A stretch of DNA of 64,000 nt, taken from NCBI GenBank assembly GCA_964397465.1, contig CAYNIC010000011.1:3503-67502 (forward strand). The letters run 5' to 3'. This document shows positions 33,688 to 53,803 of the stretch, piece by piece. Position 1 is the first letter of the stretch; each line of letters begins with the position of its first letter. This DNA comes from an uncultured Rhodospirillales bacterium (GTDB lineage: Bacteria > Pseudomonadota > Alphaproteobacteria > JAWKYA01). The notes below the pieces were generated by a model. It was not told where the DNA came from and made no database searches. It saw nothing but the letters and a program-made list of their open reading frames with translations. A program made the position numbers and the translations under genes.

Positions 33688-33724
33688 GAAATTCCTTTCT
33701 AAGAGATCAAGAATAATCCCTACC

Positions 33725-34800: not shown

Positions 34801-35108
34801 ACGGCTCCTTGTTTGGGAAACAGGGGAACATCCAGCTTGGCTTCGATGCGCAACAGGTGCGACGTTAACCGCCGCTCTACATCCTTCAGGTAGGCGATCG
34901 AGGCGTAGGATTTCGCCACTTCCAGTTTATAGGCGGCCAAGGTCTCGCGCAGTTGCGCATCCCCGGTGTGACATTGATGACGGAGGTGATCTAGTTTCTC
35001 TTCGCCATCGCGGCGGATGCGCCAGATGAACCAGAACAGACCGGCCAGGGTCGGCAGCTCGACCGCGGTGATCCACCACAACAGGGTCTCGGGCAAAAAG
35101 TTGCTCAT
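34797..35108 (-). CDS. phage membrane protein (N-terminal TM plus coiled coil; spanin/holin-associated?)
   Basis: MSNFLPETLLWWITAVELPTLAGLFWFIW is a TM helix, followed by a helical region. ATGA overlaps on both sides. Confidence 0.4.
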   Translation of the reverse strand: MSNFLPETLLWWITAVELPTLAGLFWFIWRIRRDGEEKLDHLRHQCHTGDAQLRETLAAYKLEVAKSYASIAYLKDVERRLTSHLLRIEAKLDVPLFPKQGAV

Positions 35109-35434
35109 AGGGATGATCCGTTTGCAGAAGGTAAGGTTGGCGCCGGTGCGTGGGTGTCGCTTTGCCAGTTTTTTCCTTCGGTGATGATGCAAGATCGGCT
35201 GGAGGTGAGGCGCGCCACGGCAACCCAACTTGCCGTCATCGGCGCGATGTAAACATCGATGGTCGTGCCCTCCGCCGTGGTGCCGCGGCCTAGACGGATA
35301 AATCCCTTGGCGGGGGCGAGGGCTTGATCAAGCTCCGCCGTCGATCCGCACCGCGGTGCTGCAAGAGTAAGCGACGGCAAGGCAAGGATCATCGCGCCAA
35401 GCGTCAGCCCGGCGATACTGTGACAGTAGCGCAT
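35105..35434 (-). CDS. hypothetical secreted phage protein
   Basis: Signal peptide MRYCHSIAGLTLGAMILALPSLTLA. Placed between terL and the lysis genes. Confidence 0.35.
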   Translation of the reverse strand: MRYCHSIAGLTLGAMILALPSLTLAAPRCGSTAELDQALAPAKGFIRLGRGTTAEGTTIDVYIAPMTASWVAVARLTSSRSCIITEGKNWQSDTHAPAPTLPSANGSSL

Positions 35435-35466
35435 AAAAATTCTCCTCAAGATGGGGTTAGAAAAAC

Positions 35467-36960: not shown

Positions 36961-37319
36961 GACAGATCATCATCCTCGGCATCATCGTCCGGCACGGTAT
37001 CGTCGGTATCCGCCACCGCATCCCGCGCCCGGGTCAACAGCGACGCCAAGGCATCGTCGCTTTCCGCTTCTTGATGATCCACCGCCCACCGCGCCAGACG
37101 TAACAGCCCATCCAAATGTCCTAGGGCGGATTTGCACGCAGTATGATAGGCGGAAAAACCCTTGGCGGTGTTGTCGCAGGGTGCGGCGACAAACTGGGTA
37201 TAGCTGTCCAAGGCGGTGGCCAATAAAACGGGAAGATCCTGGGCGATTTTTTGCCGGGTGGACTCGAGGCCCTTTTGGGTGCGGTTTTTGCTGGAAAGTT
37301 TTGATACCGAAACTGTCAC
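36957..37319 (-). CDS. hypothetical phage protein with acidic C-terminus (in the position of the terminase small subunit)
   Basis: 120 aa. ATGA overlap with terL. No recognisable motif. Confidence 0.35.
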   Translation of the reverse strand: MTVSVSKLSSKNRTQKGLESTRQKIAQDLPVLLATALDSYTQFVAAPCDNTAKGFSAYHTACKSALGHLDGLLRLARWAVDHQEAESDDALASLLTRARDAVADTDDTVPDDDAEDDDLS

Positions 37320-37354
37320 GTCATGTCCTTTCGAGGGAAAACAAAGGCAAGAAA

Positions 37355-37585
37355 TTATCGGGGCGGCAGTGTGCCGGTGATTCCAGTGGCGATTTTTAGA
37401 AACTGTTCCAGCCGCGCCTCGACCTCAGCCAATCGGGTTTCCAGGGGCAGGGAAGATGCCGGTGAAGAAGGTGATGAATCCGGCGGCGCAATGAAAACCG
37501 CCGAGGCGGTTTCGTCGTTTTTCAGGATATAGTTCTCGTCCTCCCATCGAACGCTAAGACCGCGGTTACTGTAGATATAGGGCAT
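37355..37585 (-). CDS. hypothetical phage protein
   Basis: 76-aa ORF between the tail fiber and the terminase module. Confidence 0.3.
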   Translation of the reverse strand: MPYIYSNRGLSVRWEDENYILKNDETASAVFIAPPDSSPSSPASSLPLETRLAEVEARLEQFLKIATGITGTLPPR

Positions 37586-37594
37586 GGAACCTCC

Positions 37595-40087
37595 TTAAAA
37601 TTCGTAGCCGTTGATATCGAGCCGAAACTGAGCCGTAGTTGTGGACGACCGCCAATACACCTGCTGGGTTGTGTTCAAGATCAGACGAAACTGTCCGGCG
37701 ATCCGCCATCCATCGAAGATGGTACCGCTGGCATTCCCGGCCGCGGTGTAACAGCCGCCGGTGCCGGTGGCGTCGGCGGCAATGGCGATGGTGTCGTTGG
37801 CCGAGGCGGCGGATTGGCCGATGGTTCCGGAGACCACACCCGCGGCCGGCGGCACCGCATTGGCGATGGATTGCACCGTCCAACTGGTGATGCCGGCGAT
37901 GCCGGTAAAGATGGTTTGTGGTGCCTGAATGACGCTGCGGTCGAACTGATAAAACTTCACCAGATTTGATGCGCCGTCATTGCGCGCCGACCCGACCAAG
38001 GCCTTGTAAGTATATCCGCCGGGAAGCATCGGTGTCGTTCCCGACAAGGATATCAATCCCGCCACGGTGGAGGTCGCGGCATTGTAAATGACCCACAACC
38101 GGTACCAGGTGGCGGCGGCTTCAACGCCGCTGTCCAACCCGTTGACGCCGCTGGCGGCGATGTCGACGGTAACCGCAATGTTGCTCAGCATCATCGCGTC
38201 ACCGGCGGCGTCCTTCACCATCAGTTCATCCGCGGCGATGTCGATCTTATTGGCCGGCGACGCGGCATTGACTCCGGCTTTCAGCCGTCGCGCTTGCCCG
38301 GCAAGGGTGAGGGAATGGGTAAAACTTAAAACGCCATTACCATTGGTGCGGAGAACTTGACCGGCCAGGCCGTCGCTGCCGGGAAAAACAAGACCCTTCA
38401 GTTTGATCTTGCCGCTGCCGTTGGGTGAGAGGTCGATGTCGCCGTTCCCGGTACTGACGATTTTCTTGCCATTGACGATCAAATCCCCGCCCAGTTTTGG
38501 CGCCGGATCATCTTCGATCTTCATCAATATCCCGGGGATGCCTTGCGCGCCGGTGTCGCCTTTCATCGCCAGGACATCCCAATAGATCCCGTTGGGCGGC
38601 GTGTGATTGATATGGGCGATTTTGCAGCGATAACTGCTGCCGGCAAGGGTTGCCACATCGCCGATGACATAGGACGTTACCGCCGACCATGCGCCTTTCC
38701 AGGCCAAGGCGCCGTCATTGCCGGCAAGGCCGTCCACGGCGACCAAGGCCCATTGCGGCGTGGTTGCCGTAAGACCGATGCGGCTTGGCGTGATGCCTTG
38801 ATGATCGACGGCGGCGATATAGGTTGCGCCGCTGGCATCATGGCGGACGACATCGCCGCGTTTGTAGGATGTCGTCATTTCCCACGCGGCCATCCAAGCG
38901 AATCCAAGCTCGGTCAAGGGCAAGGGTACAACCGTAACCGACTTGCCGGTCCACACCATCCATCGTGCGGCATAGGAGGGCGACGTCAGATCAACGGGGG
39001 TGCCGCCGCCGCTGGCGTCGGTTGTTCCCGCCTGGGCGATGTCGCCGGCGGCGAAACCGCTGCCGCCCGCCAGTTGGGGATTGGCCCCGGCTTTGTTGTA
39101 AACGTATCCGTGGCTGTGGGTTGGAAGTTCCGCCAAGGTTAGACTGTGTTTCTCTTCGCCGAAACTTGCGCCCAGTTGGCGAAGAGTAAGACCGGCACCT
39201 TGTCCTGCACCGACGATGGCACGGCCGCGCAAGTCGGGAAGTTTGACTGTGTCGTGCAAAAGCCACGTCTCGCTTCCCTGGTTAGGCGGCAAGGTGCGGA
39301 GGATGGAAAACAGGTTTTCATAGGCGCCATGGGCATGATCCGCTCCGCTTGAGGCGTCGCCCAAGGTTTTGCCATCGAGCTCCAGCCATCCGTCGGGCGC
39401 CATGCCGCCAAGGAGGCCGCCGAGAAACGGATGAATGGTGCCGACCGGTATCGCCGCCGCGACCTGACTGTTAAGGGCGTTCAAGCTGGCGGTGACACCG
39501 TTTAATGCCGCGGTACTGGCGGCGCCCAAGGTGGATCGTCCCGCTGCGGGATTTCCTGCCGCCAATAATGTCTCGCCAAATCCCGACACCGCCAGGTTTC
39601 CCGGCGGGGTGGCGATAATGGCCGTGGGCCGCCCCTCCGCATCAAAGCCCAGCGCTCGCCCGGCGCGAAGCGGCGCCAAGGGCAAGGTCATATCGACGTC
39701 GCTGTCGAACGGCGCCTTGGCAAGGGCATCGCCGGTCAAAGCCTGAACCTGCTGCACGCCCAAGGTCAAACGATCCAGTTCTTCATTCACCACTGCGGCG
39801 CGAAAGGATTCGCCATCGATGAAATCGGTGGTGCGGCTGATCGGCATGGCGCGGCTGATGGTCACCCGGCATCCGGCGGGCGGCGGAATAAAAAATACCA
39901 CATCACCGCCGCTGCTATTTCCGATGCCGGTAACCGTATAGGTGTTGATCGGCGCCCATTGGTCGTTCAACGCGACCTTTAAATCATCGCCGTTCAGAAT
40001 GGGGAAGTCGTAAGCAAAGGCCGTGACGGCGCCGGTGCCCCAATGCTGAAGGCGTGGCCGGACATCGCCGATGAGAAGATCGGACAT
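37595..40087 (-). CDS. phage tail fiber protein with tail-collar domain
   Basis: VKLPDLRGRAIVGAGQG is the phage Tail_Collar motif. 830 aa, Gly/Ala-rich and beta-rich. Confidence 0.8.
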   Translation of the reverse strand: MSDLLIGDVRPRLQHWGTGAVTAFAYDFPILNGDDLKVALNDQWAPINTYTVTGIGNSSGGDVVFFIPPPAGCRVTISRAMPISRTTDFIDGESFRAAVVNEELDRLTLGVQQVQALTGDALAKAPFDSDVDMTLPLAPLRAGRALGFDAEGRPTAIIATPPGNLAVSGFGETLLAAGNPAAGRSTLGAASTAALNGVTASLNALNSQVAAAIPVGTIHPFLGGLLGGMAPDGWLELDGKTLGDASSGADHAHGAYENLFSILRTLPPNQGSETWLLHDTVKLPDLRGRAIVGAGQGAGLTLRQLGASFGEEKHSLTLAELPTHSHGYVYNKAGANPQLAGGSGFAAGDIAQAGTTDASGGGTPVDLTSPSYAARWMVWTGKSVTVVPLPLTELGFAWMAAWEMTTSYKRGDVVRHDASGATYIAAVDHQGITPSRIGLTATTPQWALVAVDGLAGNDGALAWKGAWSAVTSYVIGDVATLAGSSYRCKIAHINHTPPNGIYWDVLAMKGDTGAQGIPGILMKIEDDPAPKLGGDLIVNGKKIVSTGNGDIDLSPNGSGKIKLKGLVFPGSDGLAGQVLRTNGNGVLSFTHSLTLAGQARRLKAGVNAASPANKIDIAADELMVKDAAGDAMMLSNIAVTVDIAASGVNGLDSGVEAAATWYRLWVIYNAATSTVAGLISLSGTTPMLPGGYTYKALVGSARNDGASNLVKFYQFDRSVIQAPQTIFTGIAGITSWTVQSIANAVPPAAGVVSGTIGQSAASANDTIAIAADATGTGGCYTAAGNASGTIFDGWRIAGQFRLILNTTQQVYWRSSTTTAQFRLDINGYEF

Positions 40088-40111
40088 GAGAGTGTCTCCT
40101 TATAGAGGCGC

Positions 40112-40603
40112 TTAACGGATCAGGGATATTTGCTGAATGGCGTAGTGGGTTCCGGTGTCCAGCAGGCTGCGGCCGATGGCGTTCGCCGGCGACAAGCGAC
40201 GCTCGCGGTCCAAAATCTTGGCGCGCTGCTGCGTTTGGGCGATTGCGGCGCCGTTGTCGGCGAGGTCAGCATCCCGTTTGGCCAAGGCTTGTTCCGTCGC
40301 GTCGGCATGACGCGATTGCATCGCCTGTTGCAAGGCCGCCGTACTGCCGCCGTCATCATTGATGCCGCGCGCCGCCGCACTGGTGCGGGCGCCGCCCAAC
40401 TCGCGGCGTAACCCAAGGCGCCGGGTCGCTTGATCGGTCTCGAAGTTGTCGGCGATCAGCGAGCGTCGCCGCTGCAAGGACGCCAGTTGCTGCTGGGCAG
40501 CGAGGCTTTGCGCTTTCGCTTCGGCCCGGCGGGCGGGAAGATTCAGCGCCGTTTGGGCTGCTGTGGCGGCAAGCTGTGGAAGTAACGGGGTTGACGCGGC
40601 CAT
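40112..40603 (-). CDS. hypothetical virion protein (T7 gp13/gp14 position)
   Basis: 163-aa Ala/Gln-rich protein between the tubular protein B gene and the tail fiber gene. One-nt overlap coupling. Confidence 0.4.
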   Translation of the reverse strand: MAASTPLLPQLAATAAQTALNLPARRAEAKAQSLAAQQQLASLQRRRSLIADNFETDQATRRLGLRRELGGARTSAAARGINDDGGSTAALQQAMQSRHADATEQALAKRDADLADNGAAIAQTQQRAKILDRERRLSPANAIGRSLLDTGTHYAIQQISLIR

Positions 40604-42534
40604 CAGTCATTCACCTTAAGTTCGCAGTTGACGGAAAGAAGCGTGAAGGAAAAAGGATTGCTTTGGGTAATGCGCCACAGCGGTTCCAGCGCGCCGCGAT
40701 GCCAGCCCAAGGCCCGCACCGTGACATCGCCGGTATAGGCCGCCGGCGGTGAGTCAAGATTGACGCCGCCGATCGTCTGCAACGGAACCAATCTTGGTCC
40801 GCGGCCCACATCAACCATCAAGGCGGGGGTGTCTTTGATGCGGAAGGTGGCGCGGATCAGCCGCAAGGGCTCACCCTGAAGTTCTCCGTTGTCCGACGGC
40901 GGCAGGGGCTCGATGCTGTGGGTAAAGGCAAGACCTACTTCGATGCGGGTGGCGGTGGCGGCCAGAGAAATCACCCCGCCTTTGACCTTATAAAGGCCGA
41001 GCGGCCGGCCATCGGCGATGACCGTCACCCATTTGTCGTTGAGATGGGACAGCCCGCCCCAAATCGATTGGGCTTGTTCGGTTTCGCCCAACAAGGCGGC
41101 ATCACTGTTAAGTTGCGGATCAAATTTTTCGATCCGAAAATCGGCAAAACGTTTGGCCAAGGCATAGACGTCGCCGCCCACCACGGCGACGGCATGAAAC
41201 TCGCCGTCGGTTTCCAACCGCGTCCAGGCGGTGACATTCTCCGAGCGATAAAGGGTAAGGGCGCCGAGGCCGCCGTCGCTCATCACCACGTAAAGCACCC
41301 GCGACTTATCGGCGTAATCCATGTCGATCGGATCCGTCACCAGATGCGGAGCCAGCACCGAGAGGTCGCGGGCTTGGTAAGCCGCCTCGGCATCGGTATA
41401 AAGAAGTTCGCGAATTTGCCGGCCGCTGCGCGCGGCAAACAGGGTTGCGCCTTCAACCGCGCGGGGTGGTACGGTGCGATCAGGGTGTGAGCCGACGGTG
41501 GTTTGCCGTTTCGCCTGGACCGTGGCGGGAGATAACGGCTCGCCGGTGATCTGCCACTCGCCGCCGGTGGTCAAAACAAACAGCGTCAGACCGGAATGCA
41601 TCCCGCGAATGGCGTCGACCTGTTCCGACAACAATCCGAACTCGATCGCATCGTCATCCTCGCCGATGCCAAGATCAAAGTTGAACAGATCCGAAGTCCG
41701 CGACATCCAGATCCGGTTGGGGATCGACCGGGCGCCGCCGAACACCAACCGGTCTTGGGCGAAGGCGACGCTGGCGGGCCAGCCGCGATAGGGTGAAAAC
41801 GCCTGCTCGGACCAATCGGTGATGGCGGTGGTGTTGGGCAAGGACAGGGCCAGCGTCACCTTCACCGCCGTTGCCGAGGTGACCTCGATGATGGCGACAT
41901 CCTGGTTGGGCAGGCGTAAGTATGCGCCCAGCTGCGCCGGATCAAACACCGGTGCCGATGCGGTCAAGGTAATGGTGCCAGAGGTGCCGCTGGGCGTTAA
42001 GGTCACGGTATCTCCGGCGAAACGATAGAACGGATGATAGCGGCGTTTGGTTGTCGTATTGGCGACAAAGGTTAGATCCGCCAAAACCCAGGTTTGCGGC
42101 CCTAGACGGGTGAGGGTCTTTGGCGCAACATCGGGATGACAAATAAACAACGTGTCCGCACTTTGCGCCCAAGTCAGACGCTTGATCTGATCCGCCGTCC
42201 ACGGCGTGGCCACGGTGGCGATGACCGCATCATGGTGCAGGATGGTGATCTGCTGATGGGTGACGACCAACAGATAAGTCTGCTCGGCATTAAAGGCGAA
42301 ACCGATCAGACGGCCGGAGCCCGCGGCGATGGCGATATGACGCAGGCCAGGCCGGCGCGTCACGCCTCCGGTCGGCTGCACCAAAATATTGCGCAGTTTT
42401 TTTGCGGCGTTGCTGTACGACGCAAGATCGCCCCGGCCGTAAAGATCGCTCGATACTTCGCCGGCGGTGAAATTATTTTTGAGAACCCGCATGCGTCCCA
42501 TCTCAGCCTCCTCCAGTCCAGCCGGTAAGATCAA
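40603..42534 (-). CDS. tail tubular protein B (T7 gp12-like)
   Basis: N-terminus MRVLKNNFTAGEVSS...VQPTGGVTRRPGL parallels gp12 (NLKGGISQQP...GLQKRPP). Size 643 aa. Synteny after the tubular protein A gene. Confidence 0.65.
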   Translation of the reverse strand: MILPAGLEEAEMGRMRVLKNNFTAGEVSSDLYGRGDLASYSNAAKKLRNILVQPTGGVTRRPGLRHIAIAAGSGRLIGFAFNAEQTYLLVVTHQQITILHHDAVIATVATPWTADQIKRLTWAQSADTLFICHPDVAPKTLTRLGPQTWVLADLTFVANTTTKRRYHPFYRFAGDTVTLTPSGTSGTITLTASAPVFDPAQLGAYLRLPNQDVAIIEVTSATAVKVTLALSLPNTTAITDWSEQAFSPYRGWPASVAFAQDRLVFGGARSIPNRIWMSRTSDLFNFDLGIGEDDDAIEFGLLSEQVDAIRGMHSGLTLFVLTTGGEWQITGEPLSPATVQAKRQTTVGSHPDRTVPPRAVEGATLFAARSGRQIRELLYTDAEAAYQARDLSVLAPHLVTDPIDMDYADKSRVLYVVMSDGGLGALTLYRSENVTAWTRLETDGEFHAVAVVGGDVYALAKRFADFRIEKFDPQLNSDAALLGETEQAQSIWGGLSHLNDKWVTVIADGRPLGLYKVKGGVISLAATATRIEVGLAFTHSIEPLPPSDNGELQGEPLRLIRATFRIKDTPALMVDVGRGPRLVPLQTIGGVNLDSPPAAYTGDVTVRALGWHRGALEPLWRITQSNPFSFTLLSVNCELKVND

Positions 42535-43114
42535 ATCCGCCGGCGGTTTCTTCCTGGGCGTCGATCAGACGGGCGCGGCGAAATTCTTCCTCGGCGGCAC
42601 GGGCCAAGGCTTCGGCCCGGGATGAATTCTCGGTCAAAGGAATGCAGAACTCGGCCGCCAGGCGCGCGATCAGCACATGATCAAAGAACGGCGGAAAATC
42701 CGCTTCGCCGGGGCGAAAAATATAGGTCAGGATCACTTCATCGGCGTGGGCGTGAAGCCGCCGCTCGGCGATGCGGTAGGTAAGCCCGCGCCCGCGACGG
42801 CCGTTACCGGCGGAAAGGGCGCGAAGATAATCGCCGGGCAATTGAAACGCATAGGCATAGTCGGCGGGGGGCGAGGCCGCCAAGGGCGCAAGCCGCCGTT
42901 GCGCCGTGGCGAAATTCCACGGATGGGCGGAGAGCAGGGCGTCCCGCGTCGACGGATAAAGCAGGCTGGCCACCTCGGCGGCAGCGGAGCCTTCGTCAAA
43001 TCCTAAAATAGGCGCGGCGCCGATTTTCACCAGCGCTCGGGCACAAAGTTGAATGGCGCTCAGAGCCATGGCTCGTTGCCTTTCCCATAAAAAAGCTCCG
43101 CGGCGATGAACCAT
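42503..43114 (-). CDS. tail tubular protein A (T7 gp11-like)
   Basis: 203 aa. MALSAIQLCARALVKIGAAPILGFDEGSAAAEVASLLY...HPWNFA parallels the gp11 N-terminal pattern. Confidence 0.6.
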   Translation of the reverse strand: MVHRRGAFLWERQRAMALSAIQLCARALVKIGAAPILGFDEGSAAAEVASLLYPSTRDALLSAHPWNFATAQRRLAPLAASPPADYAYAFQLPGDYLRALSAGNGRRGRGLTYRIAERRLHAHADEVILTYIFRPGEADFPPFFDHVLIARLAAEFCIPLTENSSRAEALARAAEEEFRRARLIDAQEETAGGFDLTGWTGGG

Positions 43115-43152
43115 CGCCGGCGGAGCCGATCACAACAGAGAAAATAGATTTA

Positions 43153-43410
43153 TTAGTCGGTGTTCACGCTGCCGACGGCGGTCATGTCGGCGACATCGAC
43201 CGTGCCGTTCTGGCTGGAAGCGATCAGAAGAATGCCGGCGCCGCCGTTGACATTGGCGAGAATCATATCGCCTTTGCGCAGCATATCTACGGCGGGATTA
43301 AAATAGCCGTTGGTATCGACGATGTCGGCGGTATCGGTCGAGGCATAATGCCAAAGGGTAAAGCCGTTGGCATAGGCCAGCACCGAAAGGTTTCTGGCAA
43401 GATAGGCCAT
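43153..43410 (-). CDS. hypothetical phage protein
   Basis: 85-aa ORF between the capsid and tubular A genes. Confidence 0.35.
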   Translation of the reverse strand: MAYLARNLSVLAYANGFTLWHYASTDTADIVDTNGYFNPAVDMLRKGDMILANVNGGAGILLIASSQNGTVDVADMTAVGSVNTD

Positions 43411-43448
43411 GAAGATCTCCTTTATCTCTTTAAGCTAAGGGTGAAATT

Positions 43449-44273
43449 TTACGCTTCGCTGCACGGCAGGGTGACAAGACCGGTGCCATCGACCAGCACC
43501 GCGCCCAAGGACAGCGAGCAGCTGACGAACCACGCGGCCCGATCGTTGTGATAGGCGATGTCGGTGTTGACTTCCGATCCCACCGCGAGGGCAAGGGCGG
43601 TCTTGTGCCACCAATGGCACAGGCGGTGACCATTGCCGTCGAGGCCAAGGCCGGAATGGGGCATCCACAAGGTTCCCAGCCAGCGCTTGGCCTGGGTGCC
43701 GCGCCAGGGCAGATCGTCGCTGCCGACATAATCGGCATTGGCGAATTCCTGGATCATCAAGAGATCGGACCATTGTTTCCATCCCACCACGGCGTAACGA
43801 TCTCCGTCATCGGGCACATCGTTGCCGCCCAGGATGCCGAAGGCCTCCAGCACCTTTTGTTTGGTGAGACCGCCGCTAACCGTCGGAGTCAGATTGGCCG
43901 AGGTGTTCATCTGCGCCAAAATCAGCTCGTCGGTTTTGCGGCCCAAGGCATAGGCGCCGGCATTGGCCACCACCGCCCGCTCTTCGTTCTCGGTCTTAAG
44001 TTCGTCCAGGGCGTCCACCCATTCGCCGGCATAGTAATCCGACAGAAAACATTCGATCGGCGCGTGATCGATGTTCATCACCGGCACCTTGCCGTGTCGC
44101 GCTTTGGTCGAAGCGCTGCCCTTGCCGACTTTTTGAAACACGGTGGAGGCGCCTTTAACGCTGCCCTTGGCGCGAACGCAAGGGCGGAGCTTGGCGCCCG
44201 TACGCTGATAGGCTTCGTGAACTTCCTTTTCGAACTGCTTGATGAAAGCAGCATCAATGGAGGGTTTATTCAT
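43449..44273 (-). CDS. major capsid protein (T7-like podovirus type)
   Basis: 274 aa. Position between scaffold and tail tubular genes. Weak pattern similarity to gp10. Confidence 0.6.
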   Translation of the reverse strand: MNKPSIDAAFIKQFEKEVHEAYQRTGAKLRPCVRAKGSVKGASTVFQKVGKGSASTKARHGKVPVMNIDHAPIECFLSDYYAGEWVDALDELKTENEERAVVANAGAYALGRKTDELILAQMNTSANLTPTVSGGLTKQKVLEAFGILGGNDVPDDGDRYAVVGWKQWSDLLMIQEFANADYVGSDDLPWRGTQAKRWLGTLWMPHSGLGLDGNGHRLCHWWHKTALALAVGSEVNTDIAYHNDRAAWFVSCSLSLGAVLVDGTGLVTLPCSEA

Positions 44274-44394
44274 GGTGATCCTTTCAGAAAAAATAAACGG
44301 TTGAGTCCGGCCACGGGTTATCCGCGCAGGGGCGGGCTTGCAGCCGGATGAAGGAAAAAGACGGGCCGCCGCAACGGTTGTCCGTAATTAAGAC

Positions 44395-45132
44395 TTATGA
44401 ACTGGGGTAAAGACGGCGGAAGCCCTCGCTGACCTCGGCCACAAAGGCGGGGTCTTTGTGCTTCCAATAGCGGGGATCGCGCATCATCTTGGTCAGATCC
44501 TCTTCGGTTAAACTTGCAACCGCGGTGCCGCCACCGCCAAGCCGCGGCGGCGATCCGCTTTGCATCATGGCGTGAAGCGCCAGAACGCCGTCGCTGGTCG
44601 AGGCCAAGGCGTCGAACACGTCGCGCGGCAGGTGGGCCGTGCCCCAGGCGTTGAGTTGCCGGGCGATTTCGCGCCATGCCGTATCGCCGCCGAAATGGGC
44701 GATCAGTCGCTCGCGCTGTTTTTGCGCCTCGAATTCCGACGCCAGATCGGTGATCGCCGGCAGCATGCGTTCGCCGGCGAGATCGTAAACCAGCTGAGCT
44801 TGGCGCGGCGTGAAGTGGGCCGCGTGCAGGCGACCGTTGACATCCGGATCAATGTCCAGAAAATCGGTGCTAAGATTGATCTCGTAAGCATCGGGTGTGT
44901 CGGGGATACCGAGCGCCCGGCGGAAGGCTGCGGTCTCCGTCTCGTCGGCATCATCTCGCGGCACCCGCACCATGGTCGATAGTTTTCGCTCCAGCTCCAA
45001 ATAGGATCGCGCCAGTTTCGCCACATCGGGCGCGCCGGTTTGCGGGTCCAAAAATTTCTGGGGAATTTGCACCGTGTCGGATGAAGGGGCGGCGGGCGTA
45101 TCCGATGGTGTGGTCAGTAAACTCTCGGTCAT
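44395..45132 (-). CDS. capsid scaffolding protein (probable)
   Basis: Acidic, helical protein starting MTESLLTT. Position between portal and capsid. The long N-terminal extension of the ORF is Arg/Pro-rich and not credible. Confidence 0.45.
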   Translation of the reverse strand: MTESLLTTPSDTPAAPSSDTVQIPQKFLDPQTGAPDVAKLARSYLELERKLSTMVRVPRDDADETETAAFRRALGIPDTPDAYEINLSTDFLDIDPDVNGRLHAAHFTPRQAQLVYDLAGERMLPAITDLASEFEAQKQRERLIAHFGGDTAWREIARQLNAWGTAHLPRDVFDALASTSDGVLALHAMMQSGSPPRLGGGGTAVASLTEEDLTKMMRDPRYWKHKDPAFVAEVSEGFRRLYPSS

Positions 45133-45136
45133 GGCA

Positions 45137-46669
45137 TTATCCTTTTGTCGACGAAAGGGTTTGCGCCTCAACAGAGGCAGGTAAAATTTCAGAAGAAATC
45201 GCTGCTGGAACATCGGGACGTAACAGGCTCGCCGGCAGGTCCAGCATCTTGGCGGCCCATCTGGCGGCGGCCGGCGCATCCAAGGTCGCGGCGGCGTCCG
45301 GCCCCAACTGCTTGGCGATGTCCAGCCACGACAAGGCGCCTTGCGCCTCCAACTGGGCTTGCCGCCGCGCCAAGGGCGATCGGTATTGCAAGGTGATGGT
45401 GCGACCATCCAAGGTCAGGTTCGGCAATTCGCCGCGCCGGGATAAAATCGCCAAGGCCCGCGCCACCAACGGCGTCAAAAGTTCGGCCTGCAGCCGGCCG
45501 TAGGTTGCGCCCAATAACCGCGCGGTCTCCGCCGCCCGGTGCAGAACTTCGGTTGCGGTCATGCCCGGCGTCGCCACACTTGCCAGGCGGTCGGTCAGCA
45601 GACTGGAGCGGATCGCTTGCCGTAGGGTGGCAAGAGTCAAATCCGAGACATTGAAATTTCCCGGCACCTGCAAGGGCGTCAGGCCCGATGAGCCGACCGC
45701 CTTGGGAATGATGGTGCCCGGCACCAACCTCACCGTCGCCGGATTTAAAACACCGTCGTCATCGGCCTGCCAAATGCCGGTGACGGCGATGGCGGCGTTT
45801 TTCAGCGTCAACTCAACCACCTTGTTGGCGGTTTTGATATCGGGCAATGCCTTCATCACCGGCGAGCGGCCATAGGCCTCGCCCGGCGCTTTCATCCAGC
45901 GAAACGACAAAAAGGGCGATTGATCCAATCGCGCCTTGGCCAAAAGATGCGGGCCGTTGAATTTCTCCGCACCGCCTTCCAACACCGCGACGTAATCGTA
46001 ACCGTTGCCGGTCTCGCGGGGGACCACCGCTTCGATCACCGTGTAAAGACGATCGCTGTCGGTTGCGGCGGAAGCGGGAATCTCCGCTGCGGGAAAGCGG
46101 CTGTGCAGTTGCAGCCGGCTCAACCGATTGCGACGATAGGCGATATCCAACCTTCCCTCGGCGCCTTCCTCCAACACCACATCCCACAACGGCACGGCGG
46201 CAAAGCGAAAGGCGCTGGGTTGTCCCGGGGCGGTTTCTTCAAAGGACAAACAAGCCGTGCCCGACACCACCAAATCCAGAAAGCATTGATGAATCTCCAC
46301 CGCAAAATTCGAGCGATCGAAATGCTGCTGCAGAATCTCGGCGGCGCGATCGAGTTTCGGCGCCAGGTCGCCGTGCAGGTGTTCGGGAATTTCCCGGCCG
46401 GGGGCAAAGCCGAACCATCTGGCCCAGGGCGGCGTCAGTTCAGCCAGCAAACTGGCCGCCAATTGATCCACCGCATCGGGGGCGGTGCCGTCGAACAACC
46501 GCTCGCGGCTGGCGGCGGATAGACTGGAGGGCCCCGCTCCGGCAAAGGGCGTCTCATCCCGCGACGGCAAACTGTAGGCATAGCAGTCGCGCCACACCGA
46601 CTCCCAGGCGCTGCGCTGCATCTTGGCGCGGTGAAACCGGGCCATCACGCTTTCCGGCGTCATGATCAC
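45137..46669 (-). CDS. portal (head-to-tail connector) protein, T7 gp8-like
   Basis: 510 aa. N-terminal VMARFHRAKMQRSAWESVWRDCYAYSLPSR parallels the gp8 N-terminus. Position 5' of scaffold. Confidence 0.75.
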   Translation of the reverse strand: MIMTPESVMARFHRAKMQRSAWESVWRDCYAYSLPSRDETPFAGAGPSSLSAASRERLFDGTAPDAVDQLAASLLAELTPPWARWFGFAPGREIPEHLHGDLAPKLDRAAEILQQHFDRSNFAVEIHQCFLDLVVSGTACLSFEETAPGQPSAFRFAAVPLWDVVLEEGAEGRLDIAYRRNRLSRLQLHSRFPAAEIPASAATDSDRLYTVIEAVVPRETGNGYDYVAVLEGGAEKFNGPHLLAKARLDQSPFLSFRWMKAPGEAYGRSPVMKALPDIKTANKVVELTLKNAAIAVTGIWQADDDGVLNPATVRLVPGTIIPKAVGSSGLTPLQVPGNFNVSDLTLATLRQAIRSSLLTDRLASVATPGMTATEVLHRAAETARLLGATYGRLQAELLTPLVARALAILSRRGELPNLTLDGRTITLQYRSPLARRQAQLEAQGALSWLDIAKQLGPDAAATLDAPAAARWAAKMLDLPASLLRPDVPAAISSEILPASVEAQTLSSTKG

Positions 46670-46983
46670 TCTCCCAATAAAATTTTGCGGGCGGGGATAA
46701 GGCGCGCCGATTTGCCGGCGGTAATGGCAGGCTGCTCCAGCACGCCGGTCAGTCCGGTTTTGACGGTGGTGGCAAGGCCGCGGCGAATCCGGCGGTGCGG
46801 GTGAAGATCTTCCTTCACCGCGGCGGATAGGGGCGGCGGTGCCGGAACCGGCGGTGGGGTGGGGGCGATAAAGCGGCTGGCCATCAAGGATCTCCCTGAA
46901 GCAGGTGGAACGAACGGGACAAAGGGTGGAAAAAACAAAACCCGCCGCGGTTTCCCGGGGCGGGTGAGAAGAGGCGGAGTCAT
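46666..46983 (-). CDS. hypothetical phage protein (first gene of structural operon)
   Basis: Pro-rich small ORF. ATGA overlap with the portal gene. Start may be the internal MASRF. Confidence 0.3.
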   Translation of the reverse strand: MTPPLLTRPGKPRRVLFFPPFVPFVPPASGRSLMASRFIAPTPPPVPAPPPLSAAVKEDLHPHRRIRRGLATTVKTGLTGVLEQPAITAGKSARLIPARKILLGE

Positions 46984-46998
46984 GGCCTCATGTGTTCC

Positions 46999-47027
46999 TA
47001 TATAGTTCTCTTTTCAGTTCCTGTCAA
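46999..47027 (-). promoter_or_regulatory. consensus sigma70-type promoter reading into the structural operon
   Basis: On the minus strand: TTGACA, a 17-nt spacer, then TATATA. Confidence 0.5.
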
Positions 47028-47109
47028 CGGTATTTTTTCTTAAAAAATGAAAAAGAAGCTGGCCGCCTGTGGGCAAGGTTTCCTTCCGGCTGAATCCCCA
47101 GCGTCTATT

Positions 47110-47562
47110 TCAAGAACGGCTTACCCGACCCGCGGGATTTAAAAGACGTCCCGCGTTCCTGTCCGTCAGGGATAAAAATAACCGCCATGGGGTCCAAATA
47201 AATCGGCGCCGCAGGTGCAAAATATTTTTTACCACGGCAACGCAGGTCATCGGCCGCAGCAGGTTAAGACAAGATCGATGGCGCCGCGGGGTGCGGGTCA
47301 TCGGCATCATCACGGGAATCGGCACCGCACCCTTTGCGGTATAGAATCGAATCATCTCCGCAACGGAGTAGGGAGGAAGGAGTTTGATCATCAGACGGCC
47401 GCACAGGGGATCCACCATGATCCATCCGCTGGCGATTCGATAAAGGATAAAGCAATGGCGGAAGCCTCGTTTCAACAGATAAAACCATGGAAATTCCAGC
47501 TCGCCGCGAAATACCACGATCGCCGTAACCCCGCGGCGCGGACGATCAGAGTCGGCGGTCAT
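47110..47562 (-). CDS. hypothetical protein (early/regulatory region of element)
   Basis: 150 aa starting MTADSDRP. ATGA overlap with the upstream gene. The longer 244-aa ORF has an Arg-rich, non-credible extension. Confidence 0.4.
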   Translation of the reverse strand: MTADSDRPRRGVTAIVVFRGELEFPWFYLLKRGFRHCFILYRIASGWIMVDPLCGRLMIKLLPPYSVAEMIRFYTAKGAVPIPVMMPMTRTPRRHRSCLNLLRPMTCVAVVKNILHLRRRFIWTPWRLFLSLTDRNAGRLLNPAGRVSRS

Positions 47563-47924
47563 CGGACGATTCCCTTGGCCCGCAGCGGCGGCGTCAAACG
47601 CTCTAACGCTTCGCGCCACAGCTTGGCGAAGTTCGCCTCTTCGCCCCGGGCATAGGGCGACGGAGCGCGGCCCATGCGGCCGTAGTGCATCAGGATTTTG
47701 ACATGAGCCCGGCGCAGGCGCCGTCGCTCGACCAGCCGCACCAGCTCGCGCACCACGTCGTCGGGCTCGCAGGGTTTGGGGGTGGATTTTCCCGCCTCGA
47801 ACCGGGCGCCGTCGGCGCGGGCGGTCAGGCAGGCGACGCACCAAAACCAGCAGGCTAAACTCGTCGGGAAAGGCTCCCCAATCGTTGTTCCCTTGCCGGT
47901 GGTGATAAGCTTCAACTGGCCCAT
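47559..47924 (-). CDS. hypothetical protein, possible Cro/CII-like regulator
   Basis: 121 aa, divergently transcribed from the repressor gene. Cys cluster CWFWCVAC. Confidence 0.4.
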   Translation of the reverse strand: MGQLKLITTGKGTTIGEPFPTSLACWFWCVACLTARADGARFEAGKSTPKPCEPDDVVRELVRLVERRRLRRAHVKILMHYGRMGRAPSPYARGEEANFAKLWREALERLTPPLRAKGIVR

Positions 47925-47969
47925 GGCTTTGCTCCCTTGAAGGGCTTTTTTCTCTCGCGGTAAACGAGT

Positions 47970-47984
47970 GTTCTATTATTGTTC
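47970..47984 (+). promoter_or_regulatory. alphaproteobacterial LexA-type SOS box (GTTC-N7-GTTC)
   Basis: GTTCtattattGTTC lies in the divergent intergenic region between the regulator gene and the repressor gene. A TTCAC-N7-GTGAA palindrome sits at 48058-48074. Confidence 0.5.
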
Positions 47985-48084
47985 GCTATTAGAGGGAGAG
48001 TCTATATGCACAAATACCCATGTCAAGCCTGAATCAGAATTTGATCCTAGTGACATTTTTCACCTGAATTGTGAAGGTGTTCCC

Positions 48085-48717
48085 ATGTTGAGACATGCGG
48101 ATATATGGCGGGGGATTGACCGTTTGGCTGCGACACATAATTTGTCGCCCTCGGGCTTGGCTCGAAAGTCAGGATTGGATCCCACCACCTTTAACAAATC
48201 AAAACGGGTTGCCCGGGATGGCAAGCCGCGTTGGCCGACGACGGAAAGCCTGGCGAAGATTCTGTCGGCCACCGGCGCCGGCATGAACGAATTCGTCTCA
48301 TTGATGAGCGAGACTCCCGGCACCTCGGTAACCCAGCGGATCCCGGTCATCGGCTATACCCAAGCGGGTCAGGCCGGTTACTTCGACGACGCCGGTTATC
48401 CCGCGGGCAAGGGCTGGGACGAGGTGGAGTTCCCCGATGTCGGCGATCCTCACGTTTATGCGCTGGAGATCAACGGCGACAGCATGATGCCGGTTTATCG
48501 CGACGGCGACGTGGTTGTGGTCTCGCCCCAGGCGCAGATCCGCCGCAACGACCGGGTGGTGCTGAAGACCGTCGAGGGCGAGGTGATGGCCAAGGTGCTC
48601 AGCCGCCGGTCGGCCAAGAAGATCGATCTGCATTCGCTCAACACCGATTTCCCCGATCGCAGCCTGGACAGCGACGACGTGCTGTGGATCGCGCGGATTA
48701 TCTGGGCCAGCCAATAG
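48085..48717 (+). CDS. phage repressor, HTH plus S24 (LexA-like) peptidase domain
   Basis: N-terminal HTH region (SPSGLARKSGLDPTTFNK). C-terminal S24 domain with GDSM and a following Lys (ALEINGDSMMPVYRDGDVVVV...K). Confidence 0.8.
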   Translation: MLRHADIWRGIDRLAATHNLSPSGLARKSGLDPTTFNKSKRVARDGKPRWPTTESLAKILSATGAGMNEFVSLMSETPGTSVTQRIPVIGYTQAGQAGYFDDAGYPAGKGWDEVEFPDVGDPHVYALEINGDSMMPVYRDGDVVVVSPQAQIRRNDRVVLKTVEGEVMAKVLSRRSAKKIDLHSLNTDFPDRSLDSDDVLWIARIIWASQ

Positions 48718-49829: not shown

Positions 49830-50627
49830 ATGCCTTACGTACAGCGAGATAAAAAAGGAATTGTAACAGGGTTATTTGAACATAAATTACCAGAGGCTAC
49901 TATGGAATTTCTGGAAAAAGACGATCCGGAAATTAAAGACTTTTATGATCGATTTCCACTATCGCCTCAGATGATAGAGGCGCTTCGCCCTAAATCTACA
50001 AAAGAGTTACTCGAACAGCATCAAAAAATTGAAAAAGAATATAATCAACTTATAGAAGACCATAAAGCACTTCAAAATCTCATTATATCTTTATTAGGTG
50101 TATGGGCGGAAATGGAGACTAGCTTTGCTGGCTTACTAAATGTTCTTTTAACAGGAAGTAGAGAAAAATTGGCGTTTGCACTTTACTTTTCTATTCGAAA
50201 TTTTCAAACGCAAATGACGGTAATTCAAACACTTGGTGAAGTGCTTTTTCCTTCCGAAGAAAATTCAAAAAAAGTGTATAAAGAATGGGAGTCAGTTTTT
50301 AATAAAATTAAAAAGGAAGTACCTGAAATTCGAAACAGAATCGCTCACGGGCATATAGTCCAGTTCTTGCACGAGAAGAAACATATACGTGTTTTGCCGC
50401 CATTTTTTGATTTCATTAAAATAGAAAAAAGCAACGCAAAAGCTGAATTACCTGGAGTTGGACAAAACGAAATATACAAAAGTATAAAGGTAATAGGCCT
50501 AACTTCTCAGTTTGCCAATCGCTTGTCGCTTATTTTTAAGCGTTCTTTTGAAGGCGAGGCATTAGCACTTAAAGAAATTGATTTGGAGCTCAAAAGTTAT
50601 AAGGAAAATTTCAAAAATTTAAGATAA
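49830..50627 (+). CDS. hypothetical protein with HEPN-like Rx4H motif (Abi-like)
   Basis: AT-rich (about 35% GC). All-helical protein. EIRNRIAHGH matches the HEPN R-x4-6-H motif. Confidence 0.5.
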   Translation: MPYVQRDKKGIVTGLFEHKLPEATMEFLEKDDPEIKDFYDRFPLSPQMIEALRPKSTKELLEQHQKIEKEYNQLIEDHKALQNLIISLLGVWAEMETSFAGLLNVLLTGSREKLAFALYFSIRNFQTQMTVIQTLGEVLFPSEENSKKVYKEWESVFNKIKKEVPEIRNRIAHGHIVQFLHEKKHIRVLPPFFDFIKIEKSNAKAELPGVGQNEIYKSIKVIGLTSQFANRLSLIFKRSFEGEALALKEIDLELKSYKENFKNLR

Positions 50628-50765
50628 CAGATGATATAAACATCAGCACCGCCATACGTCGTGTCAATGTCCTGAGATCGACTATCCGCCGGTGCCCTTC
50701 AGCAATAAACCCTTTGCCAGCCTCAGCCCGCTTAAGTAGCATTGCGCGGAAGGGATTTTCGTCTC

Positions 50766-51779
50766 ATGACGCTAAATTATCTCGAACTGATTATCGGCAG
50801 TCTGTGCTTAATCATCATCGGCTTCTGCGCCGGTGTTGTTATCCATGCCGGCGAGATCATTCCCTATCAGCCGCTGATCGTCGGTTTGATCGCGCTGGGC
50901 GGCGCGGTGATCGCCTATGTCGGAACGCTGAGGGCATCCCACGCCCATCTGCAGGTCGCCGAGAAGAACATCAAGCATCAGCAAGAGCAGAAGGCGCTGG
51001 ACTCTATCAACGAGAAACAGGAAATCGCGTCCTTTGCGCAAAAGCTGCTGCTGGAAATATTCAATTATCTGGTGGCGACAAGCCTTCTTTCCCGGGACCA
51101 GGCCATCGATGAAAAATGGCTCAACCTCTTGACCCTGAAAGACATGATAGAGCGATATGTCACCAGGATGGAGGACGCCTCGGATAAATTCATGAAACTG
51201 GACATTAACAACTCCAGCCGAATTCATCTGATCATTCGCGGCTTGAAAAACATCCTGCCCGAGGCGGAGACGATCCAAAATATAAATCAGCTGATGAAAA
51301 CCGGCGACAATGGCGCGATCTGCGCCCAGTATATCAACCGCACCTATGAATATATCGGGACATTCTTGAACGAGAACGTTACGGTACATGACATCCTTAA
51401 CGACTTGGATGTCATCTCCAAGGGCAATGTGGATCAATCAAGGGCGTATTCGATCTTGACGACGGATCTGAGAAAAATCATCAACGAGAATCTGAGGCTT
51501 ATTCAATCCGCCGTCACCGCGGGCCGCTATCTCGAGATCGATTATCCGCCGGGGCGCCGGGTGGTGGCGCCGCATATTTTGGGGCGCACCAGCAGTGGCG
51601 AGCTGGTGCTCAGCGTCTATCAAGTCAACGGCGCCAGTGATGCTGGCGAGACGGTGGGGTGGAAGACTTTCCATCTCGATCGCATTTTGGGCGTAAGGGT
51701 GTTGGATAAACGCTTTTCACCGCAGGGCGATTACAATCCCCACGATCCGAAAATACCCGAAGTTATCGTCAAGGTATAA
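50766..51779 (+). CDS. membrane-anchored protein with C-terminal WYL domain
   Basis: Two N-terminal TM helices. The C-terminus RRVVAPHILGRTSSGELVLSVYQVNG...WKTFHLDRILGVRVLDKRF matches the WYL consensus (..P..L....wYL.......R.FrLdRI..v.vL...F). Confidence 0.5.
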   Translation: MTLNYLELIIGSLCLIIIGFCAGVVIHAGEIIPYQPLIVGLIALGGAVIAYVGTLRASHAHLQVAEKNIKHQQEQKALDSINEKQEIASFAQKLLLEIFNYLVATSLLSRDQAIDEKWLNLLTLKDMIERYVTRMEDASDKFMKLDINNSSRIHLIIRGLKNILPEAETIQNINQLMKTGDNGAICAQYINRTYEYIGTFLNENVTVHDILNDLDVISKGNVDQSRAYSILTTDLRKIINENLRLIQSAVTAGRYLEIDYPPGRRVVAPHILGRTSSGELVLSVYQVNGASDAGETVGWKTFHLDRILGVRVLDKRFSPQGDYNPHDPKIPEVIVKV

Positions 51780-51806
51780 GCGCCGCAGCGCGCCTGTTGC
51801 AGGTGC

Positions 51807-51885
51807 GGATCACTGATCAACAGTTTTCATCGCAGCTAAAGGACCATCTACGCGATGTGATTGTCACTCCCATCAGCTCTGCAAA
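51807..51885 (+). repeat. about 80-bp direct repeat, copy 1 (about 75% identical to 53179-53257)
   Basis: gcggatcactgatcaacagtttt...gtcactcccatcagc versus gcggataactggtcaacagttttt...gtcgctcccatcactgc. Confidence 0.45.
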
Positions 51886-51903
51886 TAGGTCTATACGGTT
51901 CAA

Positions 51904-52623
51904 TTAATTTGTCGTTTGAAAGCCACGAATCGCCCAGAGTATTGACCATCCAAATATAAAGATAATCGTTGGGGGAATGATAAACATACCCAGGATAAAT
52001 AATAAACTTTTGTCAGCTATAGATCGATATTCTTTGGCATGGTTTTTTGCGGCATCAATTTTGTCTAACCGGCTTACTTTAGATTTGTAGATTTCTGCAG
52101 GGTTACGGCCGCAAGGAAGATCTATGATCTGTCTTGATTTTTCTGCCAGATTCTTATTCAGAATATTTCTAGCATCTTGAATAGATAATGACCTAAAATC
52201 AACAATAGTAACCCAAGCTTCTCGTTTAAAAGCTTCCACTATAGCTTCCAGCTGTTCATCAGATAATTTTTCAAAGTCAAACTTAGTTTGGGATGACGGA
52301 TTTTGTTTCTCCGTTTGTCGTTCTGGTGGGGGAAAATTTGATTCTTGTATTTGATTAAGATCTATCCAGCCGTTCTCCATAAAATAGAAGATAGGCTCAG
52401 TGCGGCATTTAGTTCTATAATACTTTCCTACTTCCGGTTCAGGCAGAGAGTCTGTCTCTGATTGTAGAAAAGATATTTCGCGATCTGCTTCTGCAGAACG
52501 CCTTATATTATTAGTATATTCCGATTTCAATTCGGTTAATACCAGCCAAGCTACCAGCGAAACCCATATTGCACTAATTATCAGCCATAAACGAAAAAGC
52601 CCTCTTCCAAATCTAGACATCAT
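51904..52623 (-). CDS. hypothetical membrane protein (N- and C-terminal TM helices)
   Basis: 239 aa, AT-rich. Last gene of a three-gene minus-strand cassette. Confidence 0.45.
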   Translation of the reverse strand: MMSRFGRGLFRLWLIISAIWVSLVAWLVLTELKSEYTNNIRRSAEADREISFLQSETDSLPEPEVGKYYRTKCRTEPIFYFMENGWIDLNQIQESNFPPPERQTEKQNPSSQTKFDFEKLSDEQLEAIVEAFKREAWVTIVDFRSLSIQDARNILNKNLAEKSRQIIDLPCGRNPAEIYKSKVSRLDKIDAAKNHAKEYRSIADKSLLFILGMFIIPPTIIFIFGWSILWAIRGFQTTN

Positions 52624-52813
52624 ACTTTAGGCACTCTTCTGCAGAAGCAACTTCAGATTTTAATTTTGAATAATCTATATTTTCACCCCAAGGTTTATCG
52701 TCTCGAGCGTTCTTTAAGGCGTCGCTGCAAAGATCTTTATTGCTCAAATTCGTAAATGGATATGAATAGAATTTTGGTGGGTAGTCTGGAATAGTAACTT
52801 TCACACATTTCAT
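52613..52813 (-). CDS. hypothetical small protein
   Basis: 66 aa. Overlaps neighbouring genes, which suggests translational coupling. Confidence 0.3.
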   Translation of the reverse strand: MKCVKVTIPDYPPKFYSYPFTNLSNKDLCSDALKNARDDKPWGENIDYSKLKSEVASAEECLKYDV

Positions 52814-53046
52814 TGTTTGATCTTTCCATTATTTTTTATAATTTGGTTGGGATCGAATCCCTCCGCCACAAGAAGTGAGCTAAGTTGTTCACCAAAACTT
52901 TTACTGTCTTCATATGCGAAGAGAGGCTTTTGAGTCTTATCAGATACAGATATATAAACGCGCCCTTGACCCGCATGCTCAAAATCAAAGTTGTAGCCAA
53001 GGTCATGGAGCGCAATGAGCATTCTGGCGTTGTTTGTATTGCTCAT
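52810..53046 (-). CDS. hypothetical small protein
   Basis: 78 aa, first gene of the AT-rich cassette. Confidence 0.3.
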   Translation of the reverse strand: MSNTNNARMLIALHDLGYNFDFEHAGQGRVYISVSDKTQKPLFAYEDSKSFGEQLSSLLVAEGFDPNQIIKNNGKIKQ

Positions 53047-53178
53047 TAGGTTATGCTTCCCTTTTATTTCTATTTAAAAGGGTATCATTAAATATATATA
53101 ATTTTAAATAGTTTTAAAAACACCTGACTTTTCAGTATCTTCTGCCTAGAAATCATTTTTAGCGCATTGTGTGGTTGC

Positions 53179-53257
53179 GGATAACTGGTCAACAGTTTTT
53201 ACCGAAATTGAAAGCCATCCGCGCGAAGTGACGGTCGCTCCCATCACTGCGCGGATT
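53179..53257 (+). repeat. about 80-bp direct repeat, copy 2
   Basis: See copy 1 (51807-51885). Lies upstream of the minus-strand cassette. Confidence 0.45.
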
Positions 53258-53284
53258 TAACCGGCGTCTCAGGTCAACCCGGCG

Positions 53285-53494
53285 CTAACACGTCGCGTAG
53301 GTCGGGCTTTGCGCCGCCTCAAACACAAACATCACTTCCGACGGAATAATGTCATGGGGCAACTGGCCCTTTTCCTGTGCTGCTTTCAACACAAGATCCT
53401 TCACATCGCGTCGCATCGTGCTGTTGAGGGTTTGAAAACCGCCGACCCCATAAGGGCCAACTGTTTTTCCGTGGTATTTGATAAATACGTTCAT
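53285..53494 (-). CDS. hypothetical small protein
   Basis: 69 aa beginning MNVFIKYHGKTVGPYG. The upstream part of the ORF is AT-rich and unlikely to be coding. Confidence 0.3.
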   Translation of the reverse strand: MNVFIKYHGKTVGPYGVGGFQTLNSTMRRDVKDLVLKAAQEKGQLPHDIIPSEVMFVFEAAQSPTYATC

Positions 53495-53803
53495 CGTAAC
53501 TCCCTCCCGCAGTAAACGGTTGTCCCCGTTTCCCGGTATTTTTTTAAGTGCAGTTACTTTTTTTCTAGGCCATATCGCGCGTTTAAGGGCGCCTCGGCCG
53601 TATGATATCCGATCTAGAATACGCAGCATTATAGGCACTGCATGATCGGGTCCACAAGCAAAGATCGTAAGCTCATGATTACGTTGAGCAATAAAAATAG
53701 TCGGGCGACGTTTTATTAACCAATTATTTTTTCTGAAGAAAAATAGCGTGGCCATACGCTAATTTTAGCGACGTAAATACCTCGGAAATACTTGGTTTTT
53801 ACG

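Follow-up and report, generated by a model that had tools for sequence, protein, structure and literature searches.

It is well established that LexA can control phage-derived elements, and a LexA box alone is an ordinary feature. Host LexA acts directly on phage promoters in coliphage 186 (tum), CTXphi (PrstA) and the Bacillus phage GIL01. The pyocins of Pseudomonas aeruginosa are under PrtR/PrtN control. Late gene expression in phage lambda is controlled at PR'-tR' with the antiterminator Q. The known alphaproteobacterial gene transfer agents (GTAs) are HK97-like and siphovirus-derived. Terminators in the Caulobacter GTA are read through by GafYZ anti-termination (PMC11150451), and a LexA input to the Rhodobacter capsulatus GTA is cited in PMC6473078. 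The direct repeat GTTCN7GTTC has been published as the operator bound by LexA in Caulobacter, and comparative genomics assigns it the same role in other alphaproteobacteria, where it is found in both orientations (PMC9578287, PMC12700426, PMC6473078).

The region described here is a 160-bp gap in a 64-kb window (the whole stretch of DNA that was analysed) and appears to be the head-end control region of a T7-like cluster situated between pyrD and a host HTH-S24 gene. It is bordered on one side by an ORF of 121 aa on the minus strand and on the other by the S24 gene on the plus strand. Two motifs are found in the gap: a direct repeat, GTTC-N7-GTTC, with the sequence GTTCtattattGTTC (47970-47984), and a palindrome, TTCAC-N7-GTGAA, with the sequence TTCACctgaattGTGAA (48059-48075). 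Both had been reported in the first-pass annotation, which placed the direct repeat between the S24 gene and the divergent small gene. Both are present as exact matches, and the placement is as claimed.

The locus shares features with each of the systems above. As in coliphage 186, CTXphi and GIL01, the host SOS repressor would keep a phage switch gene off, with a small early gene as the target. Unlike these phages, the cluster has no lysogeny, replication or integration modules; it occupies a fixed chromosomal position and has diverged together with a host gene. The pyocin PrtR/PrtN arrangement, in which a self-cleaving HTH gene of the S24 type is divergent from a small regulator gene and heads a phage-derived structural and lysis cluster, has a parallel here, but in the present case S24 is a core gene, widespread and also present where the cluster is absent, and the conserved operator is LexA-type. 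The GTAs of Rhodobacter capsulatus and Caulobacter crescentus (GafA, GafYZ) likewise consist of a vertically inherited structural and lysis cluster with small dedicated regulators at its head, terminators to be read through, an SOS input and a GTA-type holin domain. The present cluster differs from them in being T7-like (Head-tail_con portal, T7 scaffold, tail tubular proteins A and B), and in having a direct LexA-type box, and it shows no homology to GafA or GafYZ. Its late region resembles lambda PR'-tR', having a strong promoter, an intrinsic terminator ~60-110 nt further on that precedes the whole late operon and a small regulator gene just upstream. Unlike in lambda, no Q homologue is detectable. 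The direct repeat itself has the same tetramers, the same N7 spacing in either orientation and the same placement, at or just past the promoter core, as the SOS boxes of Caulobacter crescentus, Rhodobacter and rhizobia. Whereas those boxes are on DNA-repair genes, this one is on the first gene of a phage-derived particle cluster, and its binding by LexA is predicted from sequence.

Gene content and inheritance of the T7-like cluster

The cluster (33725-46669, minus strand) encodes structural, packaging and lysis proteins. These are a portal (Head-tail_con, E-value: 5e-122), a scaffold, a capsid, tail tubular proteins A and B, a gp14-like protein, a fibre of 830 aa, a large terminase, a cell-wall hydrolase and a holin of the GTA_holin_3TM type. 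A small ORF of 72 aa (46666-46884, minus strand) immediately precedes the portal gene; it is also called on contigs L169 and L170, and its product has the same C-terminus (...LLGE) as in relatives. No replication, RNA polymerase, integrase or lysogeny genes were detected in the cluster. Its GC content (0.61) is close to that of both pyrD (0.60) and S24 (0.61). Insertion at an attachment site was considered and rejected, as there is no tRNA gene in the interval 28-54 kb and no direct repeat of at least 11 nt is common to both cluster borders.

Three further observations concern this part of the window. Only the 163-aa gp14-like gene lies between the tail tubular B and fibre genes (37595-42534), and nothing corresponding to gp15 and gp16, the large internal core proteins of T7, is seen. 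It is therefore questionable how DNA could be ejected, if it is ejected at all. At the tail end of the cluster (32386-33750, minus strand) is a gene with a GC content of 0.40 that encodes a 454-aa RelA/SpoT-domain protein. This protein matches the PADLOC candidate defence family PDC-S33 (E-value: 3e-104), and the gene looks like a later insertion. Beyond the S24 gene, downstream of a class IV aminotransferase gene, a low-GC (0.43) island (49830-53800) contains unannotated genes, one of which (50742-51779) has weak matches to WYL and AbiEii-like models.

The cluster loci compared here include species representatives (L002-L048) and viral contigs (L089-L168). Synteny of the cluster is retained in 30 species loci, and a viral collection gave 155 hits, mostly to proviral segments of ~12-13.5 kb. 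The S24 gene is divergent from the 121-aa gene in 31/31 loci from a search centred on S24 and in 28/29 loci (those with enough upstream sequence) from a search centred on the 121-aa protein. Pairwise distances between portal proteins follow those between S24 proteins closely (Mantel r = 0.895, p <= 0.0005, 48 loci). The portal is at best 35-36% identical to those of cultured phages, compared to 52-60% for orthologues in bacterial genomes. This combination of a fixed site, co-divergence with S24, a lack of replication and integration genes and only distant cultured phages suggests a domesticated, GTA-like pattern. A search of the literature yielded no paper in which such a conserved T7-like cluster is described for these bacteria.

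The S24 gene and the neighbouring palindrome

The S24 gene (48085-48717, plus strand) encodes an HTH-S24 protein of 210 aa. The start codon is the ATG at 48085 and not the GTG at 47968, based on Pfam coverage, hundreds of 210-aa homologues and the gene calls on near-identical contigs. The protein has the conserved domain PF00717 (Peptidase_S24, 81.7 bits), a weak N-terminal match to HTH_26 (18.2 bits, under the cut-off of 22) and a match to the transcriptional-repressor family PHROG 4 that spans residues 12-209. Residues A94, G95, S133 and K170 are invariant in 24 S24 sequences and align with A84-G85, S119 and K156 of LexA. With these residues, the protein is probably a RecA-responsive, self-cleaving regulator. 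It is not LexA, as it scores only 32 bits against the LexA model TIGR00498 (cut-off 111).

Homologues of this protein are very common in other genomes. More than 8000 were found at 65-72% identity, nearly all of them 210 aa in length, and when one genome per species is counted the family is present in at least 598 species, with 58-72% identity and a near-constant length. T7-like genes adjoin S24 in 30 of 80 species loci. In 42 of the 50 element-free loci, S24 is directly divergent from pyrD, with a gap of 105-2047 bp (Pfam check). In the window, this usual divergent neighbour is a DUF952-PyrD gene (29887-31335, minus strand) that lies 16.75 kb from S24 and forms the far border of the insertion. 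Because S24 adjoins pyrD where there is no element and the cluster is located between them in the window, the cluster fills the pyrD-S24 gap. DUF952 and dihydroorotate dehydrogenase are fused in the window as a single 482-aa ORF; in Tardiphaga (L055, 8328-9925) they are separate adjacent genes.

This distribution bears on the role of the S24 protein, which the first-pass annotation had taken to be a self-cleaving, LexA-like repressor belonging to the element. In its strongest form, this alternative would make S24 a dedicated CI- or PrtR-like repressor that binds the palindrome or another local site and is removed by RecA-stimulated self-cleavage, as in prtR/prtN of the pyocin clusters. The near-constant divergence of S24 from the 121-aa gene (31/31 and 28/29 loci) would be expected of such a repressor, but it is equally explained by one old insertion followed by vertical descent, and a core gene that occurs in at least 598 species and sits near pyrD in 42/50 loci without the element is not the element's own repressor. 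The invariant Ala-Gly, Ser and Lys residues and the matches to PHROG transcriptional-repressor families also fit this explanation, as does a TTCCTA/ATAGGAA element that precedes S24 and is repeated ahead of the -35 in both leftward promoters; yet no operator can be defined, and the palindrome is neither conserved nor more frequent than chance. A dedicated S24 repressor is accordingly considered unlikely.

The evidence on the palindrome (48059-48075) is as follows. The window contains 112 perfect inverted repeats with 5-bp arms and a 7-nt loop, and 93% of 160-bp windows have at least one inverted repeat with 5-bp arms (loop of 0-15 nt). Shuffled versions of this intergenic region reach the observed inverted-repeat count in 38% of trials. 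Only the right arm, GTGAA, falls within the conserved S24 leader (...TGTGAAGGTGTTCCCATG), and the left arm is lost in relatives, being TGAAC in L081 and TTATC in L086. In many loci this variable slot is occupied by small, unrelated GC palindromes that show no covariation, and RNAalifold detected no consensus RNA structure at positions -46 to +3 of 32 loci. The palindrome had been read as operator-like; with chance-level frequency, a lost left arm and no consensus across the 32 loci, it was rejected both as an operator and as an RNA structure and is treated as a chance feature.

A different part of the S24 leader is conserved. The block cagaatttGATCCTAgtgac (48035-48054) is the local form of the TTCCTA/ATAGGAA element, which is conserved before S24 genes with or without the cluster and has the form TATAATTCCTAT in Hyphomicrobiales-type loci. 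In the leftward promoters, the complement, ATAGGAA, is found again at a distance of 8 or 18 nt upstream of the -35. The leader also has GTTC within conserved TGTTCC elements. No operator for S24 was definable.

The earlier proposal of two layers of DNA-damage control is therefore retained in part. The LexA-type box on the cluster promoter is conserved (see below), and the S24 protein has the cleavage residues expected of a self-cleaving regulator, but it is neither LexA nor element-borne and is tied to the element only by adjacency. A second, RecA-dependent layer of control through S24 is possible. With respect to annotation, the adjacent "phage repressor" gene should be corrected to a core alphaproteobacterial S24 regulator with pyrD as its usual neighbour.

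The direct-repeat box and its conservation

The direct repeat, box 1 (47970-47984), has the form GTTC-N7-GTTC on the plus strand; in the direction of the 121-aa gene it is GAACAATAATAGAAC. It is located at approximately +8 to +22 of a leftward sigma-70-type promoter for the 121-aa gene (47999-48026, minus strand), which has the -35 TTGACA (48026-48021), a 16-nt spacer and the -10 TAGACT (48004-47999). With 10/12 matches in a promoter scan, this is the only strong sigma-70-type promoter in the gap. The promoter block is retained in L081 and L086, and in most related loci the -35, which reads GTCAA on the plus strand, is anchored at a distance of 62-65 nt upstream of the S24 ATG. Box 1 begins 14 nt past the -10 of TTGACA-16-TAGACT and does not lie over it. 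In other clades, the box as read from the sequences abuts or overlaps the predicted -10.

The number of boxes in the window is at the chance level (2 observed versus 1.83 expected from shuffles), so the count alone is uninformative. Both copies are in the two AT-rich promoter regions that head the phage-like cluster: box 2 is ~1 kb from box 1, in the next AT-rich intergenic region of the cluster. Comparison with related loci was used to assess the site itself. An exact box in the same slot, in either orientation, is present in 39 of 64 non-redundant related loci (pooled) and missing from 25, counts that are not fully independent as the loci share phylogeny. In controls, an exact box is found in 0.3% of shuffled regions and in 0.5% of random 130-nt windows of the same loci, giving an enrichment of ~100-fold across the 64 loci; the corresponding values for a box with one mismatch are 7% and 8%. 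Over 1.31 Mb of loci, GTTC-N7-GTTC has a background rate of 0.028 per kb. When the slot was scanned in 31 T7-type loci, the window included (40-170 nt upstream of the S24 ATG), 10 had an exact box and 11 had a one-mismatch box. Azospirillum oryzae COC8 (L002) has both the cluster and a one-mismatch box. A separate search of viral contigs, seeded by the 121-aa protein, found an exact box in 27/31 non-redundant intergenic regions.

The sites are conserved in their tetramers and not in their spacers. Among the 39 exact sites, 38 are distinct sequences, with the spacer free to vary. The GAAC reading is on the S24 strand in 33 of them and is reversed in 6, including that of the window. The pooled consensus is GAACAWAACARGAACAT, with the extended form GAACA-N6-GAACA. 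In closer relatives, tetramers and flank are retained while the adjoining sequence diverges: L081, whose 121-aa protein is 86% identical, has box 1 intact at 15/15 positions together with 22 nt of flank, and L086 (72% identical) has both tetramers intact and an altered spacer.

Taken by itself, the window count (2 versus 1.83) would allow box 1 to be a functionless chance match in AT-rich intergenic DNA. This explanation is disfavoured and hardly credible given the ~100-fold enrichment of the slot over 64 loci, the preservation of tetramers despite spacer changes and the fact that the second box covers a -10 hexamer. The S24 loci that are without the T7-like cluster have no box, with the exceptions of Acidocella L073 and the truncated contig L031. 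The presence of the box is thus associated with the leftward promoter of the 121-aa gene and not with S24.

A conserved direct repeat is not exclusive to LexA. OmpR/PhoB-type response regulators also bind direct repeats with an 11-bp period, which is the period of this site, and a winged-helix response regulator, the 121-aa protein or the S24 protein might be the binder; GTTC is also found inside the conserved TGTTCC of the S24 leader. This explanation is very unlikely, however, because the positions that are conserved coincide exactly with the two GAAC(A) tetramers, spaced by N7, that make up the published alphaproteobacterial LexA operator, and the site tolerates inversion and has a freely varying spacer. 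Box 1 is thus predicted to be, very probably, a genuine host LexA binding site, where the reading of GTTC-N7-GTTC as the LexA motif of this particular host draws on knowledge of the alphaproteobacteria as a class. Homologues and synteny place the organism in the alphaproteobacteria. The description of the direct repeat as an alphaproteobacterial LexA-type element, made in the first-pass annotation, is borne out by its conservation in the slot (39/64 versus 0.3-0.5% in controls) and its position on the 121-aa gene promoter.

A tblastn search with E. coli RecA, LexA, SSB and RuvA identified no host SOS genes in the window or in any of the loci compared (2.3 Mb of sequence). Its sole match was a phage SSB in viral contig L117. 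CtrA control of the region was also considered and rejected, as the only TTAA-N7-TTAA of the window (32556) is outside the control regions.

Late promoter, leader terminator and proposed switch

Box 2 (46994-47008, minus strand; GAAC-TATATAG-GAAC) encloses the -10 of a predicted late promoter (46999-47027, minus strand). This promoter has the -35 TTGACA (47027-47022), a 17-nt spacer and the -10 TATATA (47004-46999). Box 2 is kept in three relatives, one of them with a changed spacer: it is conserved in L081, and in L086 the spacer is AATAATA and both GAAC tetramers are intact. The TTGACA-N17 layout is also found upstream of the small-ORF/portal operon in distant loci. With the exception of L079, the distant loci examined have the late promoter without an exact box, and a conserved element, (A)TAGGAAAAAA, is located upstream of its -35.

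Between the late promoter and the operon is a hairpin that resembles an intrinsic terminator (46930-46965, minus strand). It consists of 7 bp, a mismatch, 3 bp and a GAAA loop, followed by UUUGUUUUUU. The leader RNA has a predicted folding energy of -32.4 kcal/mol (z = -2.8). A comparable hairpin and T-run are present in the leaders of L001, L018, L042, L045 and L048 and in those of most viral-contig loci examined. A conserved leader motif, ...TTGCGyCC, accompanies the terminators of the distant loci and is missing from the clade of the window. The region 46500-48300 has no match to known RNA families in Rfam. The order of promoter and then leader terminator implies that read-through or activation is required for expression of the operon.

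The candidate for this step is the product of the 121-aa gene (47559-47924, minus strand), as it is the first product of the promoter with the LexA-type box. This protein is all-helical, belongs to no known family and may be an early or late-gene regulator. It has no match in Pfam, PHROG, NCBIfam or PADLOC, or among 50,697 phage records. Its AlphaFold2 model is confident (pLDDT 83.6) and has four helices but no recognisable regulator fold. A Foldseek search of the PDB returned best hits with E-values above 3, and the best structural match, to the Q21 antiterminator, is not significant (TM 0.42, E-value: 7). A homologue is encoded by the 44-kb viral contig L117 (9965-10384), between the primase/helicase-SSB and terminase-portal modules. 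This contig is without an S24 gene and without a T7-type portal.

The 150-aa gene (47110-47562, minus strand) is predicted to be co-transcribed with the 121-aa gene and is syntenic in 30/80 species loci and 79/80 viral-contig loci. Its product has no family match and only 9 close homologues were found; the structural model (pLDDT 56) was too poor for a structure search. The invariant motifs FRHCF, DPLCG, RSC and MTCVAVVKNIL, which include conserved Cys and His residues, point to an enzymatic or metal-binding role more than to a classical regulator.

The switch proposed for this region has three steps. In the undamaged cell, LexA would shut off the leftward promoter from which the 121-aa and 150-aa genes are expressed; in this lineage it would do the same to the next leftward promoter, the -10 of which is inside the second exact box. 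Upon DNA damage, active RecA would stimulate self-cleavage of LexA, and the 121-aa protein would be made. This protein would then activate the late promoter or permit read-through of the leader terminator, turning on the portal, capsid, tail, terminase and lysis genes. The motifs, with their positions, conservation and enrichment, are direct observations, whereas binding by LexA, induction by damage and the role of the 121-aa protein as late regulator are inferred. Overall, it is likely that the early promoter is kept off by host LexA, as is the late promoter in this lineage, that DNA damage frees both and that the 121-aa product drives the late operon past its leader terminator.

A wider and more tentative reading can be offered. 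The region may be the SOS-operated switch of an undescribed type of T7-derived (podovirus-type), GTA-like particle cluster that was fixed long ago between pyrD and S24 and has since been passed on by vertical descent in Azospirillum, Defluviicoccus, Telmatospirillum, Terasakiella, Magnetovibrio and Acetobacteraceae-type lineages, and such clusters might be a source of the particles with ~10 kb of DNA from Azospirillum sp. B510 and A. lipoferum. Mitomycin C-induced particles of this kind have been described for Azospirillum sp. B510 and A. lipoferum 4B; the B510 genome paper reported no prophage of matching size, and a later study tentatively proposed RcGTA-like regions (PMC2818188, PMC3899980). 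The T7-like cluster could be another candidate source of these particles.

Through comparison over dozens of genera, what began as a 15-nt match becomes an operator that can be tested, with defined promoters. If particles are made, the cluster would represent a podovirus-derived equivalent of the gene transfer agents that arose from siphoviruses, with a DNA-damage trigger acting through a direct LexA site and a likely read-through step, both of which could be tested in culturable hosts such as Azospirillum oryzae and Defluviicoccus vanus.
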